Assembly (NCBI GenBank): GCA_900757715.1
Contig: CAAEOZ010000090.1
Coordinates: 2,740-66,739, forward strand
Length of the DNA: 64,000 bases
From: an uncultured Veillonella sp.
GTDB taxonomy: Bacteria > Bacillota > Negativicutes > Veillonellales > Veillonellaceae
Direction: 5' to 3'
Part shown: piece by piece, positions 3,659-64,000 of the stretch
Layout of the letters: each line of letters opens with the position of its first letter
Numbering within the stretch: the first letter of the stretch is position 1
The notes under the pieces: model-generated
Database searches by the model: none
What the model saw: the letters and a program-made list of their open reading frames with translations, nothing else
What the model was told of the DNA's origin: nothing
Translations under genes and position numbers: made by a program

Positions 3659-6127
3659 GTGGCAGACCAACAATGGTCCCACGGGAATATTCATCCCGTT
3701 CAGATTGATAAAGAAATGAAGAACGCGTATATCGATTATGCAATGTCTGTAATCGTTATGCGTGCGCTTCCAGATGTGCGCGATGGCTTGAAACCAGTAC
3801 ATCGTCGTATTTTGTATGCGATGCACGAAACAGGCATGACGCCAAATAAACCGTACAAGAAATCCGCTCGTATCGTCGGTGACGTACTCGGTAAGTATCA
3901 TCCACATGGTGATAGCTCCGTTTATGACGCGACGGTTCGTTTGGCGCAAGATTTCAATACGCGCTACCTCTTGGTTGACGGTCACGGTAACTTCGGTTCC
4001 ATCGACGGCGATAGTGCTGCTGCGATGCGTTATACCGAAGTACGTATGGCGAAGATTACAACAGAAATGCTTGCTGATATCGACAAGGAAACTGTTGATT
4101 TCATGCCGAACTATGATGAAAGCTTGCAAGAACCAACTGTATTGCCAGCGAAGATTCCAAATCTTCTCATCAATGGTTCCAGTGGTATCGCTGTAGGGAT
4201 GGCGACAAATATTCCACCACATAACCTTAACGAGGTATGTAATGGCCTAGCGATGCTCATCGACAATCCGGATGTGACTGTAGATGAATTGATGACGCAA
4301 ATCAAAGGTCCAGACTTCCCGACTGGAGCGCTCATTTTGGGCCGAGACGGCATCAAAAAAGCGTATTCCACAGGTCGTGGTAGCGTTAAAATGCGTGCTC
4401 GTGCAACCATCGAAGAGATGTCTAAAGGCAAGCATAAGATCGTAGTGACTGAGATTCCTTACCAAGTGAATAAGGCTCGCGTAATTGAAACAATTGCAAA
4501 CTTGAGCCGCGATAAGGTAATCGATGGCATTACAGCACTTCGCGATGAATCTGACCGCCAAGGTTTGCGCATCGTTATCGAATTGCGCGCCGATGTGCAA
4601 CCAGACATCGTACTTAATAAATTATATAAACACACTCAACTTCAAGAAACATTCGGCGTGATTATGCTAGCTCTCGTAGATGGACATCCTCGCGTATTGA
4701 ATTTGAAAGAAGTATTGGGTTACTACTTAGATCATCGTCTAGACGTTATCGTACGCCGTACTCAATTCGAGCTTAACAAAGCCGAAGCGCGTGCACACAT
4801 CTTAGAAGGCTTGTTGATTGCTCTCGACCATATCGATGAAGTGATTGCCACAATCCGTAGTTCTCAAACTGACGAAATTGCACGCAACGCATTAATGCAA
4901 AAATTCGGGCTTTCAGAGAAACAAGCGGTAGCCATCCTCGACATGCGTTTACGCCGTTTAACAGGATTGGAACGCGAGAAGATCGAAGACGAATACAAGG
5001 AATTGTTGGCATTGATCGAAGACTTGAAAGCTATCTTGGGTAGCGAAGCGCGTCAACGTCAAATCATCAAAGACGAACTCGATGATATGAAGAAAAAATA
5101 CGGCGACCCTCGCCGTTCTGAAATCACAATCGATACGTCCGACCTTGATGTAGAAGACCTCATCGCTGACGAAGAGATGGTGATTACCTTGACTAAACAA
5201 GGTTACATCAAACGGATGAACGCGAACGTATATCGCAACCAACATAAAGGCGGCGCTGGCGTTATCGGCATGAAGACGAAGGAAGACGATTATGTAACGC
5301 AAATTATGCATGTGCGGACCCATAATACATTGTTATTCTTCACATCTACAGGCCGTGCATATCGCCTCAAGGCATACGAAGTGCCGGAAGCAGGTTCCCG
5401 CAACTCTCGCGGTACCGCTATGGTTAACGTATTGCCACTCGCGGTAGGTGAATCCGTTACGACTATGATCGACCTTGAACGTGTCCATGAAGATGTAAAT
5501 TTATTTATGGTCACTGAATTTGGCGTTGTAAAACGTACGGCTATTGAAGAATACCGTAATATCCGTCGTTCTGGCCTCAATGCGATTAACCTCGACGAAG
5601 GCGATCGTTTGATTTCCGTTAACGTAACGACTGGCAATCAAGACATCTTGATTGGTACTAAGTTGGGTATCGCTATTCGCTTTAGCGAGCATGATGTGCG
5701 CCTTATGAAACGGGCGGCTCACGGTGTGCGTGGCATTAAATTGAATGCAGGCGACGTAGTTGTAGGTGCTGGTGTTCTTAATACTGATGAAAGTGAAGCA
5801 CAAGTGTTTACTATCTCTGAAGAAGGTTTTGGTAAACGCAATGATGCGGAAGCTTATACATTGCAAAAACGCGGTGGTAAAGGCTCTAAGAACTTCAAGA
5901 TTACGAATAAAACAGGCGACGTAGTGGCCGTAGAGGTTGTTCATAATGATGATGAAGTTATGCTTATTTCTGAGCAAGGTAAAATCATCCGCTTCAACAT
6001 GAATGACATCGCTGTGAAGAAGGGCAAAGCTATTTCTGGTGTGAAAACACAAAACCTCGACGAAGGCGATAAGGTAGCTAGTATTGCTGTTATTCCAGGC
6101 GCTGAAATCGAAGAAGAAGTAGAATAA
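3659..6127 (+). CDS. gyrA: DNA gyrase subunit A
   Basis: 822 aa with a GTG start; [55 protein letters not shown]. The active-site region, QRDR-like motif ([11 protein letters not shown]) and C-terminal beta-pinwheel repeats are present. Confidence 0.97.
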
Positions 6128-11325: not shown

Positions 11326-12390
11326 ATGAATTTTGTGGGACGTGCTGAGATTATAGAGAGTATCCAGTCCCGTATTGCATTGGGTCAAATGAGTTTATGT
11401 GTTGTATATGGTCCTCATCGCAGTGGTAAATCATATGTGGCTTCGCAGCTTGTACGCCGTCATAAGGCGGTATACTTGGCGGGGCGCATGGCCAATGAAT
11501 CAGTCCATGTGGCTGATATAAATAGAGCTCTTGAGGCACGTTTTGTTCCTGCTGATGCTCAAGACAAGTTTGAGCCTGTAGAGACCTTGCATGAGGCCTT
11601 TGTAAGACTTTTTGAAAGCAGTGTGAAAATACCTCAGACTGTGGTGATTGATGATTATCCATTCTTGGTGGAGGCTGTACCTCAGTTCCCAATTCACTTG
11701 CGTGATTTATTAGATACCTATAAAGATACGAGCCGATTAAACATCATTTTGATGGCTAATGGCATGGAACAGCTCGATGGCCGCATCATTGGCAATCGCA
11801 GCCTTATCGGACCTTTCGTGTCCGAATATCTCGAGGTGAAACCATTTTCCTTGGTTGATATGAAATCCTTGGGCCTTCACTATGCAAAGGATGATTTGCG
11901 CACCGTCTTTGCTGTAACAGGTGGTTTGCCTGCCTATGTACAATACTTTGATAATGGTGAAAGCATCGATACGAATATTATTAATTTGTTCTTCTCAGTA
12001 ACGGGAGCTCTCTTTGAAGAAACACAGTATATCTTGCATCGAGATATGAAAAATATAACCGGTGCCAATGCTATTTTAACGGGCCTTGCTAGCTTGGAAA
12101 GACCGTACTACGTGGAGCTTTTACAAGAAAGCCAAATTAAAAGTGGCACGTTCACATCTCGTTTGAACGATCTCATCTCTATGGGGCTCGTGGGCCGCAT
12201 TCAGGCAAGTAACCGTGGGAACGCGAAGTACGCGGATTACCATTTCACGAATAGTATGTTCCATTTCTGGTACCGCTATGTATATAAATACTGGGGCGAT
12301 ATCGTACGCGGTTATGGCGCTGATGTATATTATAATCATGTAAAACCGCAGCTAAAGGACTTTGTCCAAGCCGCGTGTATTGCGATGTAA
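11326..12390 (+). CDS. P-loop ATPase (archaeal-ATPase/DUF234-type ATP-binding protein)
   Basis: Walker A VYGPHRSGKSY and a Walker B-like VVIDDYPF. RBS ggaggtg. Confidence 0.7.
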   Translation: MNFVGRAEIIESIQSRIALGQMSLCVVYGPHRSGKSYVASQLVRRHKAVYLAGRMANESVHVADINRALEARFVPADAQDKFEPVETLHEAFVRLFESSVKIPQTVVIDDYPFLVEAVPQFPIHLRDLLDTYKDTSRLNIILMANGMEQLDGRIIGNRSLIGPFVSEYLEVKPFSLVDMKSLGLHYAKDDLRTVFAVTGGLPAYVQYFDNGESIDTNIINLFFSVTGALFEETQYILHRDMKNITGANAILTGLASLERPYYVELLQESQIKSGTFTSRLNDLISMGLVGRIQASNRGNAKYADYHFTNSMFHFWYRYVYKYWGDIVRGYGADVYYNHVKPQLKDFVQAACIAM

Positions 12391-12505: not shown

Positions 12506-12683
12506 AATAATATATTTTCAGCAATTACCCTTTGAATCTCATACTTATGTTGTACTTTGGATAGAAATTAAGGCTCAAGTATAACAGAATATAGGGAAAT
12601 TCCAAGGAATTGCCGATTTGTCAAAAAACTCTTTCCGCGGTATTGTGTACATAAGCGCTATGCCATGGCAGGAAAGGGGATTT

Positions 12684-13550
12684 ATGTTATATACAAACGA
12701 AGAACCTTTAGTACAAAAAACATGTATTAAAACTGCAAACTTACAACATGACAACTATCAGTCAAAAAAATTAGAAACACAGGCATTACCATCTCATTCT
12801 TTATTATCGAAAGCTGATGAGTCTAGCCGAAGTATTCCAGAGAAACTGAAATTACAGACCCTCGTCTGTGGTCATCAAGTCTTATCGTCCTTGTCGGACA
12901 AGAGTCTCGTGTCCATTTGTCAAAAGCCAAATATGAGGATTCAGACGGTAGGGTATCAACCGTGGTCCGTTGATGAGCTTCGTCATGATGCGGCACAAAT
13001 CGAGCTCTGTCGTAGGTATCGACCGCTCATCTTGCACTATACGAATCGTATGGGAAACCGTGAGTTCCGCGAGGACGTAGAAAGCTATCTATGGGCCATC
13101 CTCATAGAATCGATTTATAGCTTTGATTTGGACGGACCTGTACCGTTCCCAGGCTTTGTGAAAGCGGGCATCATGTACGGTTATATGCGGTACTGGAAGC
13201 GTGAGCGATTGCGTTATCGCCGTGAAATTCACATCCCAGATCGCACTACCGATGATGGAGAAGTCGCCTTTGGTATGGATATCTTCGCATCTGGCGAGAA
13301 TGTGGCGGATATGGTGATGAGTGCCGACGAAGAGCATAGGATACGAGCTCGTCTAGTGTGGGCTTTAGGCAGACTATCTCCTGATCAACGGGACCTACTG
13401 CGCCGTGTCTATGGTGAGTGTCAAAGCTTGGTATCGGTTAGTGAAGAACTGAACTGCAGCCGCCAAGCCATCCAACGGCGTCACGAACGAGCCATTCGAA
13501 AGCTGCGTAGATATTTGAGTACGGACTTTGAAGACTTGCGTGTACATTAG
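12684..13550 (+). CDS. sigma-70 family RNA polymerase sigma factor; start uncertain (ATG 12684, alternatives ATG 12660 or TTG 12618)
   Basis: The C-terminal region-4 HTH LSPDQRDLLRRVYGECQSLVSVSEELNCSRQAIQRRHERAIRKLRRYL; a region-2-like segment lies upstream. Confidence 0.65.
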   Translation: MLYTNEEPLVQKTCIKTANLQHDNYQSKKLETQALPSHSLLSKADESSRSIPEKLKLQTLVCGHQVLSSLSDKSLVSICQKPNMRIQTVGYQPWSVDELRHDAAQIELCRRYRPLILHYTNRMGNREFREDVESYLWAILIESIYSFDLDGPVPFPGFVKAGIMYGYMRYWKRERLRYRREIHIPDRTTDDGEVAFGMDIFASGENVADMVMSADEEHRIRARLVWALGRLSPDQRDLLRRVYGECQSLVSVSEELNCSRQAIQRRHERAIRKLRRYLSTDFEDLRVH

Positions 13551-58498: not shown

Positions 58499-58876
58499 TT
58501 ACATTGTTTTCTCTACTAATGCTTCTTGTAGAATTTGAGAAAAGTTAATTCCTTTAGCTAATGCTCTATCGTTTAGCCAGGCAGGAATCGTTAGGGTTTT
58601 CTTTACGGATTTACTGTTTTTAGCTAAATCAATATCTGTTTGAACTAATGTAGGATATGTTGTTTCGGTACATGGTAAGCTGCGAATAGATGTGGGGGTA
58701 GGTAGAGTTTGTCCATCTTCTAAAGCACCTAATATATAGAGCTCCATAGCCTCTTGTGCATTGGTTATTAATTCTGTTAGTGTTGAGCCGGTGCTACTAG
58801 TGTATTCGAGATCGGGAAATTCAGCCCAGAAACCATCGGCATCGTCATGGATTATAGCAGGGTATATAAATTTCAT
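58499..58876 (-). CDS. hicB: type II antitoxin HicB (UPF0150)
   Basis: MKFIYPAIIHDDADGFWAEFPDLEYTSSTGSTLTELITNAQEAMELYI is a HicB N-terminal domain. The C-terminal DNA-binding tail is NFSQILQEALVE. Confidence 0.8.
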   Translation of the reverse strand: MKFIYPAIIHDDADGFWAEFPDLEYTSSTGSTLTELITNAQEAMELYILGALEDGQTLPTPTSIRSLPCTETTYPTLVQTDIDLAKNSKSVKKTLTIPAWLNDRALAKGINFSQILQEALVEKTM

Positions 58877-58885
58877 AGGGCCTCC

Positions 58886-59062
58886 TTATTTTAGTCCTGT
58901 TCGTTTTAGAATAGCATGTAATAAACCTGTAGGAACATCTTTTTCGTGTACGGCAATGACTTCCACTTGATCATCTTTTTTCAAACGATGATGACTACCG
59001 CATTGCCGTACATCCTTCCAACCATTTTGTAGAAGTAGTTTAAGCAAATCTTTATCCTTCAT
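58886..59062 (-). CDS. hicA: type II toxin HicA (mRNA interferase)
   Basis: MKDKDLLKLLLQNGWKDVRQCGSHHRLKKDDQVEVIAVHEKDVPTGLLHAILKRTGLK. RBS aaggaga. The upstream in-frame extension in the ORF track (to 59176) was rejected. Confidence 0.8.
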   Translation of the reverse strand: MKDKDLLKLLLQNGWKDVRQCGSHHRLKKDDQVEVIAVHEKDVPTGLLHAILKRTGLK

Positions 59063-59282
59063 AGGTTCTCCTTTCACTATAACACGTATATACGTGTTAT
59101 ACAATGGATAGGCGTATAGTTTATTCATTTGTAGTCTAGCATCGTTTGTATCATTATAGTGGTGACTATTGGTCACCTATGTTCCTATTAGTCACTTGAC
59201 AATATAGTTTTGTATAATGAATAGCATGAATTGAATAAATAGGGATAAGAGGTAAATTAAATAAGTGTAATATTAGTGTGTA

Positions 59283-59335: not shown

Positions 59336-59686
59336 TTATTTCGTTTGCTTTGGTTGATTGGACATGGTGTATATGGCAAGTGCTATCCAAATACAGGAGA
59401 AGGCAATGATGTTTGGTATATCAAAGCTTTCTTCAAAATAGAAAATAGATAGTAAAAATATAATTGTAGGAGCTAAATATTGAAGAAAGCCTAGTAGGTT
59501 GAGTGGTAATAGTTGAGCTCCGTAGGAGAAAAGGATAAAAGGAACTGCTGTAGTTAAACCACAGCCCATGAGGAGCAAAGCAGTGTACCAGTCTGTGCTA
59601 AAATAAGACCAAGAGGTAGTATCGAAGACAGTTGTGTATAGCAAGGCTAGCGGTGTTAAGAGCCAAGCTTCAACGGCACCTAGCAC
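59336..59686 (-). pseudogene. rarD (EamA-family) C-terminal fragment; diverged partial duplicate of 60786..61682
   Basis: ...EAWLLTPLALLYTTVFDTTSWSYFSTDWYTALLLMGCGLTTAVPFILFSYGAQLLPLNLLGFLQYLAPTIIFLLSIFYFEESF... aligns residue for residue with the C-terminal 115 aa of the full-length gene. No N-terminal half. Confidence 0.65.
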
Positions 59687-60785: not shown

Positions 60786-61682
60786 TTACTTTTTTAGGCT
60801 AATGCGCGTTGTAATTTGGCTTGATAAGGAGAATAATACTAAGGCTATCCAGATACAACCGAAGGCGATCATTTGTGGTGTGCCAAAGCTTTCACCAAAG
60901 TAAAAGATGGCTAGCAACAAGGCAATGGTAGGGGATACATATTGCAGGAAGCCTAGTAGGTTGAGCGGCAATAGTTGCGCACCATAGGAGAATAGCACCA
61001 ATGGAACAGATGTAGTTAGACCGCAGGCTATGAGCAGCATGGAGGTATACCAGTCTGTGCCGAAATAAGACCACACTGTATTATCGATCATGGTCGTATA
61101 TAGTAAGGCTAGCGGTGTTAATAGCCAGGCCTCAAAGGCGATGCTCGTAAAGGGAGAGATGAGTAGTTTCTTTTTTACGGCCCCATAAAGACCGAAGGAA
61201 ACGGCGAGGATCATCGATACTAACGGCAAGGATCCTACTTGATAGGTGAGTAAGGCGATGCCGATGGTAGCGATGAGGACACTCAGCTTTTTCGGTATAG
61301 ATAGAACCTCTTTAAATAGGATGACACCTAATACTACATTGAAGAGTGGGTTGATGTAATAGCCAAGGCTCGTGTTCATAACTTGATTATTGGCGATGGC
61401 CCAAATGTAGGTGAACCAGTTTACGCTGATGATGACTGCCGCAACTAAAAGTAGGAATAGTTGTGAACGTTGTTCTTTTAGTAATTGAAAGTCCTTTTTG
61501 AATTGTTTAAAATGTAGGCCAAATACAACGATCGCCATGCAAATACCTGACCAGATAATGCGTTGTGCCAGTATATTATACGGTGAAACATGGTTTAATA
61601 ATGCCCAATATAGAGGGAGTAAGCCCCAAATTATATAACAACTAAGGGCTGTGATTAACCCTTTTTTACTTGTATGGTCCAT
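60786..61682 (-). CDS. rarD: RarD (EamA/DMT family) membrane protein
   Basis: MDHTSKKGLITALSCYIIWGLLPLYW..., 10 TM, two EamA halves. RBS gaggagg. The ORF-track start at 61703 is less likely. Confidence 0.8.
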   Translation of the reverse strand: MDHTSKKGLITALSCYIIWGLLPLYWALLNHVSPYNILAQRIIWSGICMAIVVFGLHFKQFKKDFQLLKEQRSQLFLLLVAAVIISVNWFTYIWAIANNQVMNTSLGYYINPLFNVVLGVILFKEVLSIPKKLSVLIATIGIALLTYQVGSLPLVSMILAVSFGLYGAVKKKLLISPFTSIAFEAWLLTPLALLYTTMIDNTVWSYFGTDWYTSMLLIACGLTTSVPLVLFSYGAQLLPLNLLGFLQYVSPTIALLLAIFYFGESFGTPQMIAFGCIWIALVLFSLSSQITTRISLKK

Positions 61683-61883
61683 AATGCCTCCTCGTGATAG
61701 CACTTATTATATCATTAATTCTTAAATTCTTAACCCATGCATTTTAGTTATTACATATGATTTTCAGTTATAACTTTGATTTTGGCACTTATGATTAAAT
61801 GTTATGTTCATTGACTTTGTGCATATTGTTACACTATATTGGACTTAGAACAACGAATATAGAGAATAGGTGTCGTAAGACTT

Positions 61884-62012
61884 AATAGAGAAATCGGTAT
61901 AAGCCGATGCGGTCCCGCCACTGTAAGGATGAGCCTGCTTTCATATATGTCACTGGAGTAATCTGGGAAGGCGAAAGCGAGGTGATGATCCCGAGCCAGG
62001 AGAACTGCCTAT
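61884..62012 (+). promoter_or_regulatory. cobalamin (AdoCbl) riboswitch aptamer
   Basis: aatagagaaatcggtataagccgatgcggtcccgccactgtaagg matches the conserved core AATAGGGAA..GGTG.AA.TCC...GCGGTCCCGCCACTGTAA (B12 box GCCACTG). The 3' element gagccaggagaactgcc matches AGYCAGGA.ACCTGCC. Confidence 0.75.
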
Positions 62013-62105
62013 TTGATAATCACCGTTATGTACCTACGAGCGATAGGAAGGGGATTGGGGTATGCTGTCTACAGTATTTTTTAGTGTACCTTTCAATAAG
62101 AAACC

Positions 62106-62136
62106 TTACGTGTCACTTTAGGTGGCACGTTTTTTA
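62106..62136 (+). terminator. putative riboswitch expression-platform terminator
   Basis: acgtgtcac tttag gtggcacgt tttttatt. Confidence 0.5.
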
Positions 62137-62316
62137 TTGCCCTTAGAGTGGATGTTGAGTATATGCGTCAAGTTTTATAGACATTAAACCGATGGACACA
62201 TTTTGAGGTTGATGTGGTCCAATAAGATAAAGCTCGAGTGATTCATATATCTAACAATTCACAGGTACGGTGCGCTGTTTCTCGGTATGGTTTCGAGTTG
62301 AAAAGGAGGCACATAT

Positions 62317-64000
62317 ATGTCTGACAAAAAGACTTCAAAGGATGCTGAACGTGATTTATTAGCACCTGTATCCTTTGATGAGTTTAAGAAACCTACGTAT
62401 GAACAATGGCAGGCCGAGGTTGAAAAAGCGTTAAAAGGTGGCGACTTCCATAAGAAGATGTTCACTAAAACCTATGAGGGAATTACGTTACAACCAATTT
62501 ACACGCCTGCATTGCATGGAGAAAAAATTCCAAAGGGTGTATATCCTGGAGCAGGTGAGTTCCTACGTGGCACAAAGGCAAGTGGTTATATTAAAGACTC
62601 TTGGGGCGTATCCCAATATGTAGACGAATCCTTTCCTAAGGATGCTAACCATGCAAGTTTATACGAAATTGTAAAAGGTGGCACCATTCACAATATTCGC
62701 CTTGATGAAGCAACACGCCATGATCAAGATGTGCAAGTAGGCGCAGCTGTTGGTATCGGTGGTACATCTCTGTCTACTATGGATGATTGTAGCCAATTGA
62801 TTGAACGTTTTAATTTAAAGGAAAATCCTTTATACATTGAAACAGGTGCTTCTGCAGCTATCTTGCTCGGTATGTTAGCCGCTACGGTGAAAGGCTCTAA
62901 AAAACAGACCTCTGACTTGAAAGGTCTCGTTGGCGCAGACCCTATTGGTGTTTGGGCTAAAGATGGTACATTGCATATGTCTTTAGATACAGCCTTTGAT
63001 GAAATGGCACATACTGTTGTATGGGCTAAAGAACAAGCTCCAGAGCTTAAAACTGTACTTGTATCTGGCGATGTATACGCTAATGGTGGCGCTAATGATG
63101 TGCAAGAGGTTGCCTATGCATTGGCAACAGCAGTTTGCTATGTGCGTCAATTAGCACAACGGAACATCGATATTCATACTATTGCTAAAAGCATGATGTT
63201 TACATTCTCCTTGGGGGCAAACTTCTTCATGGAAATTGCTAAACTACGTGCATTGCGCGTGCTTTGGGCGCGCATTATGGAGGCCTTTGGTGCAGAAGAA
63301 GCTGACCGTGCTGTTCATGTACACGGCAGAACATCGGCTTTCACAAAGACCGTATACGATCCGTATGTAAATCTGTTGCGTAACACGACACAGGCATTCT
63401 CCGGCGTTGTAGGCGGTTTGAATAGCCTTGAAGTGTCTCCATTTGACCAACCAATTCGTAAAGCTGACGACTTCTCTCGCCGTATTGCCCGTAACATCCA
63501 AGTTATGTTGCAAACTGAATTCGAGTTGCGTCAACCTGTGGACCCTGTAGGCGGTTCCTGGTATGTGGAAACATTGGCAGCCGAATTATGTGAAAAAATT
63601 TGGGCTGAGTTCCAAACTATTGAGGCTAAAGGTGGTATCGTAGCAGCTTTGAAAGAAGGCTATCCACAAGCTCAAGTTAAAGCAGTTCTTGACGAACGCT
63701 TCAAAAATCTTGCATTCCGCAGAGATGTGGCTGTAGGTAATAACATGTATGCGAACATGACTGAAGAATTGCTTGATCCAAAACCAGAAAATCAAGAAAC
63801 ATTGCGTCAAAAACGGGTTGCTCAAATCGAGGAGTACTTGGCAAGTGCGGAGCCAGATGCGGTTGTGAAAGCACAGGCTACCCTAGAAGCAGGTACTACA
63901 GAGCCAGGCGCTTTGATTGGTCTTATTGAACTCGGTGCATTACAAAAATTAACAATACGTCAAATCCGGAAGGCTTTAGATGCTGGTGATATTGCTTCCG
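62317..64000 (+). CDS. mutA: methylmalonyl-CoA mutase small (beta) subunit; 3' end lies beyond the window
   Basis: MSDKKTSKDAERDLL...YEQWQAEVEKALKGG...GVYPGAGEFLRGT...FSLGANFFMEIAKLRALRVLWARI...FSRRIARNIQVML...GGSWYVETL is co-linear with MutA-type subunits. RBS aaaaggagg. Confidence 0.85.
   Translation, partial: MSDKKTSKDAERDLLAPVSFDEFKKPTYEQWQAEVEKALKGGDFHKKMFTKTYEGITLQPIYTPALHGEKIPKGVYPGAGEFLRGTKASGYIKDSWGVSQYVDESFPKDANHASLYEIVKGGTIHNIRLDEATRHDQDVQVGAAVGIGGTSLSTMDDCSQLIERFNLKENPLYIETGASAAILLGMLAATVKGSKKQTSDLKGLVGADPIGVWAKDGTLHMSLDTAFDEMAHTVVWAKEQAPELKTVLVSGDVYANGGANDVQEVAYALATAVCYVRQLAQRNIDIHTIAKSMMFTFSLGANFFMEIAKLRALRVLWARIMEAFGAEEADRAVHVHGRTSAFTKTVYDPYVNLLRNTTQAFSGVVGGLNSLEVSPFDQPIRKADDFSRRIARNIQVMLQTEFELRQPVDPVGGSWYVETLAAELCEKIWAEFQTIEAKGGIVAALKEGYPQAQVKAVLDERFKNLAFRRDVAVGNNMYANMTEELLDPKPENQETLRQKRVAQIEEYLASAEPDAVVKAQATLEAGTTEPGALIGLIELGALQKLTIRQIRKALDAGDIAS

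Follow-up and report, generated by a model that had tools for sequence, protein, structure and literature searches.

Introduction

The element reported here has its closest described counterpart in Veillonella parvula DSM 2008, namely the 'V. parvula mutA' riboswitch (NC_013520.1, 2018714-2019166; strains KK705 and KK1359), the targets of which, Vpar_1761-1763, are mutA/mutB/meaB (Kennedy et al. 2022, mBio 13:e01121-22, PMC9600662). The mutA leader with its native ribosome-binding site was fused to GFP in that work, and repression by Cbl, pCbl, Cbi and CreCba was observed in Bacillus subtilis. The riboswitch was entered as 'Transcriptional' and was used as the Fig. 3B example of the 'promiscuous' type. 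Out of 86 riboswitches 38 were functional, meaning that GFP was repressed, and 37 of these 38 had an intrinsic terminator. Table S1B of the same study lists the mutA riboswitches of V. parvula, Selenomonas sputigena and Desulfobulbus propionicus, two in tandem in the latter, under 'Corrinoid-dependent isoenzyme'. Oral metatranscriptomes have also been reported to contain a Veillonella riboswitch that precedes the gene for methylmalonyl-CoA mutase (Ram-Mohan & Meyer 2020), and riboswitches near cobamide-dependent isozymes, among other gene types, were described in skin genera including Veillonella (Swaney et al. 2022).

The OFF switches of B. subtilis btuF/yvrC and Priestia megaterium metE resemble the element found in the window, that is the whole 64-kb stretch of DNA analysed here. 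In each of them an RF00174 aptamer is followed by a P13/L13 hairpin, the loop of which is of the CGAG(N)GA type, and by a purine-rich segment after P13 that faces the pyrimidine-rich arm of an intrinsic terminator, and corrinoids repress expression. These switches control uptake genes or a B12-independent isozyme, whereas the one in the window controls a B12-dependent enzyme and its chaperone, and a structured spacer of another 180 nt separates its terminator from the gene. EutX/Rli55 of Enterococcus and Listeria are B12 riboswitch-controlled regulatory RNAs for B12-dependent catabolism, and AspocR is an antisense RNA of Listeria pocR that is likewise under the control of a B12 riboswitch. They share with the window the link between a cobalamin riboswitch and a B12-dependent pathway, but act in trans or as antisense so that the pathway is expressed only with B12, while the riboswitch in the window is read here as acting in cis, with B12 lowering expression.

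Results and Discussion

Identity of the riboswitch

A cmscan of the window against Rfam 15 was performed in order to identify structured RNA, and RF00174 (Cobalamin, clan CL00101) was the sole Rfam match within the 64 kb. The match at 61851-62026 on the + strand scored 102.6 bits with E=1.5e-24, the gathering score being 31.5, and its alignment spanned model positions 1-189 of 189 and was not truncated. This bore out the cobalamin riboswitch claimed in the initial annotation, for which an Rfam search had been named as the check. A permissive Rfam scan of 61700-62400 gave no second family, only chance-level microRNA and sRNA matches. The aptamer and the site preceding it are as follows.

61811..61840, + strand: promoter-like site, TTGACT, 18 nt, TATATT, with 10 of 12 consensus matches
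61851..62026, + strand: cobalamin (AdoCbl-type) riboswitch aptamer, P1 to P1, assigned by RF00174 and by identity to the published V. parvula DSM 2008 mutA riboswitch

The strings on which the initial claim had been based were located where it had placed them, aatagagaa...ccactgtaagg at 61884-61931 and gagccaggagaactgcc at 61994-62010. The start that it had given, 61884, drops roughly 33 nt of the 5' strands of P1 and P2, as the 5' end of the aptamer is at about 61851. Conservation was evaluated in an alignment of the window and 24 non-redundant Veillonella leaders (25 in all), the latter being 79-99% identical to the window. The aptamer was near-invariant over the 25 leaders, with few changes in loops and a variable P6 extension. 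GCCACUG and the B12 box AGCCAGGAGA(A/C)CUGCC both fell on invariant consensus positions in the cmscan alignment, and both were unchanged in the 25 leaders. The B12 box we take, from the consensus, to be the 3' element GAGCCAGGAGAACUGCC and not GCCACUG. The 'B12 box' was placed on the 3' sides of P3 and P6 by Barrick & Breaker (2007, PMC2258182), and the label "B12 box GCCACTG" of the initial annotation is, on both grounds, probably wrong.

Comparison of window positions 61864-62262 to the 'V. parvula mutA' riboswitch of Kennedy et al. (2022) showed identity at 397 of 399 nt. The two mismatches to the DSM 2008 leader, 62068 T (published G) at the apex of hairpin P14 and 62261 A (published G) in the spacer hairpin, were both in variable parts; element, operon, P13/L13 and terminator were otherwise the same. 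Judged by its sequence, the window element is the already published and experimentally characterised V. parvula mutA-mutB-meaB riboswitch in a different strain. Its placement before a B12-dependent enzyme, which had been called unusual, is so in comparison to the textbook targets but was already documented in Table S1B of Kennedy et al. (2022) and by Ram-Mohan & Meyer (2020).

The 5' end of the aptamer lies only a few bases past the promoter-like site, and the transcript is predicted to start at about 61847, just ahead of the aptamer. The -10 region TACACTATATT was unchanged in the 25 Veillonella leaders. The upstream neighbour is a divergent rarD/EamA transporter gene (60786-61703, - strand), and as a result the riboswitch can serve only the mutA side.

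The mutA operon

The open reading frame that starts at 62317 belongs to the methylmalonyl-CoA mutase family (Pfam PF01642, MM_CoA_mutase, 454 bits). It is on the same strand as the riboswitch, and only short unsupported open reading frames, and no supported gene, were found between the terminator and mutA. The riboswitch is located in the mutA leader, as had been proposed.

62303..62319, + strand: Shine-Dalgarno sequence AAGGAGG and mutA start codon ATG (62317), unchanged in the 25 leaders
62317..64000, + strand: mutA, methylmalonyl-CoA mutase beta ('small') subunit, assigned by PF01642 and running off the end of the window

A search of one-genome-per-species contigs gave a MutA relative in Veillonella parvula (locus L001) with 99% amino-acid identity. 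The operon order at that locus, as assigned with NCBIfam, was mutA, mutB, meaB. The best NCBIfam match of the 720-aa mutA product was the mutase small (beta) subunit, with the C-terminal domain model scoring weakly, while the 729-aa mutB product matched NF006944 with 1296 bits and the 417-aa meaB product matched the mutase-associated GTPase with 492 bits. Two mutase annotations are present in V. parvula, and its heterodimeric mutase, Vpar_RS09005/RS09000, allowed an S. meliloti mutase mutant to grow as well as the native enzyme did (Sokolovskaya et al. 2019). Based on subunit sizes and gene order this heterodimer very probably corresponds to the operon in the window.

Terminator and expression platform

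Four elements were distinguished between the aptamer and the end of the terminator.

62033..62047, + strand: P13/L13 hairpin, CCUA-CGAGCGA-UAGG, in agreement with the published alignment and unchanged within Veillonella
62038..62051, + strand: candidate antiterminator 5' strand, running from the L13 3' half over the P13 3' strand into the purine tract GGAAGG, with a predicted pairing to 62104-62118
62058..62091, + strand: variable hairpin P14 (GGGUAUGC... / ...GUGUACCU), 8 pairs, 98.5% of cells paired
62108..62136, + strand: intrinsic terminator with a 10-bp stem (62108-62130), a UUA loop and U6

The hairpin and U-tract noted earlier downstream of the aptamer proved to be the riboswitch terminator, its 10-bp stem at 62108-62130 being followed by T6 to 62136. 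Three terminator-like sites were counted in the surrounding 1 kb compared to 0.5 expected from shuffles. Both arms and the U-run were unchanged in the 25 Veillonella leaders while the loop varied (TTTA, TTTTG, TCTCG, TCCAG). The 3' end of the published 'V.p.mutA-minimal-riboswitch', ...GGTGGCACGTTTTTT, corresponds to window position 62136 and therefore to the same terminator (Kennedy et al. 2022, PMC9600662). A terminator of unrelated sequence was present at the same position, 62-71 nt past the aptamer, in L006, L009 and L005, three loci from outside the alignment. The element between the aptamer and the regulated gene is accordingly a conserved intrinsic terminator, one of the features expected of a transcriptional OFF switch. 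Another candidate, a small hairpin with U6 at 62062-62085 that was at first taken for the terminator, was rejected: L156 and L103 have lost it and L175 and L125 carry it twice, with the enclosing P14 helix kept. Within P14, 4 pairs were altered on one side only, and the apex was deleted or duplicated in some Veillonella.

In cobalamin riboswitches of this class L13 kisses loop L5 of the aptamer. The linker and P13/L13 were unchanged in the 25 Veillonella leaders. Data Set S1 of Kennedy et al. (2022, PMC9600662) puts P13/L13 at ACCUA-CGAGCGA-UAGG, which is window 62032-62047. Every P13 cell was paired in 6 distinct Negativicutes sequences, compared to 37-58% in slid registers. Two positions varied, one as U-A/C-G/U-G and the other as A-U/G-C/G-U, and one change was double-sided; 157 of 500 shuffles equalled these pairing values, six sequences giving low statistical power.

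The purine tract that follows P13 may act as part of an antiterminator. For a nascent transcript ending at 62118, pairing of 62038-62051 with 62104-62118 was the minimum free energy (MFE) structure, and the terminator became the equilibrium fold once the 3' arm was made. The predicted duplex had an energy of -11.0 kcal/mol, which was equalled by 7.4% of shuffles of the window; in four relatives 15-51% of shuffles did so, and only L004 was clearly beyond chance. L006, L009, L005 and L004 nevertheless all had a purine-rich stretch 3' of P13 that is complementary to the pyrimidine-rich terminator 5' arm or its flank. Both strands were unchanged in Veillonella and hence offered no covariation to evaluate, the only variable base being U62107, which is A in three divergent leaders (L156, L103 and L157) at the cost of one predicted pair. 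The pairing is therefore put forward as a modelled and still unproven antiterminator. A pairing of GCCACUGUAAGG in the aptamer with CCUUACGUG in the terminator 5' flank was also considered; it was good in the window, and it was set aside as no equivalent was seen in L006 or L009.

Distribution of the riboswitch-mutA linkage

In order to evaluate how widely the arrangement occurs, metagenomes were scanned for the P1-3'/linker motif. The scan gave 120 loci, and 88 matches had a MutA homologue downstream. The layout of riboswitch, terminator, mutA, mutB and meaB was shared by the 25 non-redundant Veillonella leaders and by distant Negativicutes, Synergistales and a single Clostridiales metagenome-assembled genome (MAG), so the orthologous leaders, the comparison of which had been suggested in the initial annotation, carry the same element within the genus and beyond it. 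The linkage was identified with Rfam in L001-L009. In the 'Veillonella-like' MAGs L006-L008, where MutA identity was only 51%, a cobalamin riboswitch was found upstream of the mutA homologue, and the same was observed in L009 (Negativicutes MAG), L005 (Selenomonadales MAG), L004, L013 and L057 (Synergistales) and L018 (Clostridiales). The published mutA riboswitches of S. sputigena and D. propionicus are similar in that a Cbl riboswitch and a terminator precede mutA/mutB/meaB; they differ from the window in lineage and in platform sequence, and Selenomonadales add a second terminator-like hairpin.

No riboswitch was found upstream of mutA at 24 other mutA loci (L010-L012, L014-L017, L019-L033 and L036), among them loci from Verrucomicrobiota, Chloroflexota, Bacillaceae and Cloacimonadota. 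The linkage is on this account recurrent but lineage-restricted and found mostly in anaerobes. Two complete riboswitches roughly 750 nt apart were found in tandem at L121 (2355-2537 and 3106-3288) and L092 (5298-5479 and 4547-4728, minus strand), in both cases upstream of a MutA homologue with 41-48% identity. This arrangement resembles the published pair of D. propionicus (mutA-1, mutA-2).

Mechanism of control and alternative explanations

The cobalamin (corrinoid) riboswitch of V. parvula mutA-mutB-meaB is, with high confidence, a transcriptional OFF switch, a reading that rests on the published repression in B. subtilis, that is from a foreign promoter in a heterologous host, and with which the anatomy of the leader agrees. 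Transcription would begin at about 61847. Binding of an adenosylated corrinoid to the aptamer (61851-62026) would then hold P13/L13 (62033-62047) through the L5-L13 kissing loop, leaving the terminator 5' arm free to pair with the 3' arm (62108-62130 and U6) so that RNA polymerase would halt ahead of mutA. Without ligand the 4-bp P13 would open and 62038-62051 would pair with 62104-62118. This would block the terminator, resulting in read-through across the structured 180-nt spacer into mutA, mutB and meaB. Kissing-loop cobalamin switches usually work in this way, and by analogy the ligand would lock P13, the terminator would form and transcription would end. The transcript that terminates before mutA, listed in the initial annotation as an option of its own, would describe the ligand-bound state; it is not a separate option, since an ordinary OFF switch does the same.

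An ON switch, in which corrinoid binding prevents the terminator and restricts mutase synthesis to conditions with available cofactor, would be the more intuitive physiology, and cobalamin does raise mutA/mutB transcripts in Xylanibacter ruminicola, though no riboswitch is near those genes. This suggestion of the initial annotation is contradicted, at least in the heterologous host, by the repression of GFP from the full native leader with four corrinoids (Kennedy et al. 2022, PMC9600662). The terminator is furthermore outside the aptamer and comes after a standard P13/L13, a layout shared with the OFF switches assayed in that study, and we regard an ON switch as extremely unlikely. A decoy or small RNA, also proposed earlier, fared little better. 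In such a case promoter, aptamer and terminator would make up a stand-alone gene comparable to EutX/Rli55, its long and short forms would act in trans, and mutA would be read from another promoter. The roughly 180 nt between terminator and mutA, the structured spacer, the terminated RNA of about 290 nt that should accumulate when cofactor is abundant and the riboswitch-bearing Veillonella transcripts of oral metatranscriptomes (Ram-Mohan & Meyer 2020) would all fit this. A consensus scan, which could miss a weak promoter, gave no promoter-like site in 62137-62316, however, and the permissive Rfam scan gave no other family in the leader. Across phyla, mutA-mutB-meaB always comes next after the riboswitch and reads in the same direction, and the leader is kept together as a single unit. 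The promoter scan and the strict mutA synteny thus speak against an independent transcript with the genes under a promoter of their own, and repression in cis was demonstrated with the native leader (Kennedy et al. 2022, PMC9600662). We consider a stand-alone RNA very improbable.

What the OFF switch senses is a further matter. It might respond mainly to non-native or incomplete corrinoids from the community (Cbl, pCbl, Cbi) and lower mutase synthesis, which would spare the enzyme poorer cofactors. Almost all riboswitches assayed responded weakly to p-cresolylcobamide, V. parvula's own cofactor, and the promiscuous type, the V. parvula mutA riboswitch included, also responds to Cbi (Kennedy et al. 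2022, PMC9600662). The V. parvula mutase (VpMCM) binds Ado[Cre]Cba tighter than AdoCbl (Sokolovskaya et al. 2019), and V. parvula cobamide biosynthesis genes were reported to be without riboswitch control (Swaney et al. 2022). Against this, the affinity of VpMCM is similar for several cobamides, the lower ligand has a minor effect on catalysis by the S. meliloti enzyme, with turnover differing by 3-fold at most, and none of the cobamides was inhibitory to that mutase (Sokolovskaya et al. 2019). Sensing of this kind appears improbable to us.

Under the transcriptional OFF switch, repression by B12 of a B12-dependent enzyme and its chaperone is counter-intuitive, and no explanation for it was found in the literature on these riboswitches and the mutase. 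Our best guess is compensation: when cofactor is scarce, more apo-mutase and MeaB chaperone would be made, which would let the central enzyme of the succinate-to-propionate pathway capture what cofactor is available, and when cofactor is plentiful fewer, saturated enzymes would suffice. Unrelated anaerobes that rely on the mutase (Veillonella, Selenomonadales, Synergistales, Desulfobulbus) would repress mutase and chaperone when B12-type cofactors are abundant, and the recurrence of the arrangement across phyla, sometimes with tandem riboswitches, argues that this logic was selected rather than accidental. An explanation of mutase repression would inform how gut and oral bacteria allocate scarce corrinoids.

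The spacer between terminator and mutA

RNAalifold predicted one large structure in the part of the leader that is transcribed upon read-through.

62148..62262, + strand: predicted long imperfect stem-loop of roughly 115 nt in the read-through 5' UTR

In the 25 Veillonella leaders 89.9% of the cells of this hairpin were paired, compared to 31-53% in slid registers, and 12 pairs were altered on both sides. A total of 35 double-sided cells was obtained, compared to 15.9 +/- 2.7 in shuffles, and 0 of 500 shuffles reached 35; these counts may be inflated by the relatedness of the sequences, and the structure was derived from four of the tested lineages. Spacer MFE z-scores were not significant in any of six taxa, ranging from -0.1 to -1.7. 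The covarying hairpin appears to be undescribed, given that no account of it was found in the literature on these riboswitches and that it had no Rfam match, and it is treated here as a lead.

A hairpin at 62270-62312 that would sequester the Shine-Dalgarno sequence was also predicted by RNAalifold. It was rejected, the inner helix being broken in the CCCCTG/TCAAG clade and the outer helix lost in L157. The last 45 or so nt before the mutA start (62271-62316, + strand), from GTGCGCTGTT through the Shine-Dalgarno sequence, were nearly invariant across Veillonella while the spacer upstream varied.

A second terminator-like GC hairpin with a U-run was observed between the riboswitch terminator and mutA in Selenomonadales, both at L005 (5867-5893) and in the published S. 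sputigena leader (GCCGCCCTCGACTGCAGGGCGGCTTTTTG), and a weaker one was observed at L006 (5785-5809). These may constitute a second attenuation step. The mutA leader could be viewed as a two-layer regulator, in which the B12 OFF switch is combined with a stem-loop at 62148-62262 that answers another signal or serves processing, and in which the B12 paradox reflects a strategy of cofactor allocation. The Selenomonadales hairpin, being at the same leader position, is cited within this reading, which we hold to be doubtful. If it were true, cofactor supply and a second input would jointly set the levels of mutase and MeaB.

Additional riboswitches and neighbouring genes

The 13.7 kb of the Selenomonadales MAG at L005 contained three cobalamin riboswitches, at 790-974, 5504-5688 and 12642-12850. 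Downstream of the first are genes for a CobN-like chelatase and a BtuR/CobO adenosyltransferase. The second is followed by mutA-mutB-meaB, and the target of the third is beyond the locus. At L004, a MAG which is labelled Bacteroidaceae and has a MutA 50% identical, the riboswitch (4665-4839) precedes mutA at a distance of roughly 1050 nt that holds no convincing gene, and past meaB there is another riboswitch at 11697-11829, this one of the AdoCbl type (RF01482). Two to four riboswitches each were found at L119, L151 and L091.

Upstream of the riboswitch in the window, two stretches on the - strand, 58499-59176 and 59336-59686, stood out on reading of the translations. They account for an apparent HicB-like/HicA-like toxin-antitoxin pair and for a 116-aa open reading frame, probably a truncated paralogue of the adjoining RarD transporter (60786-61703), the C-terminal third of which it resembles.
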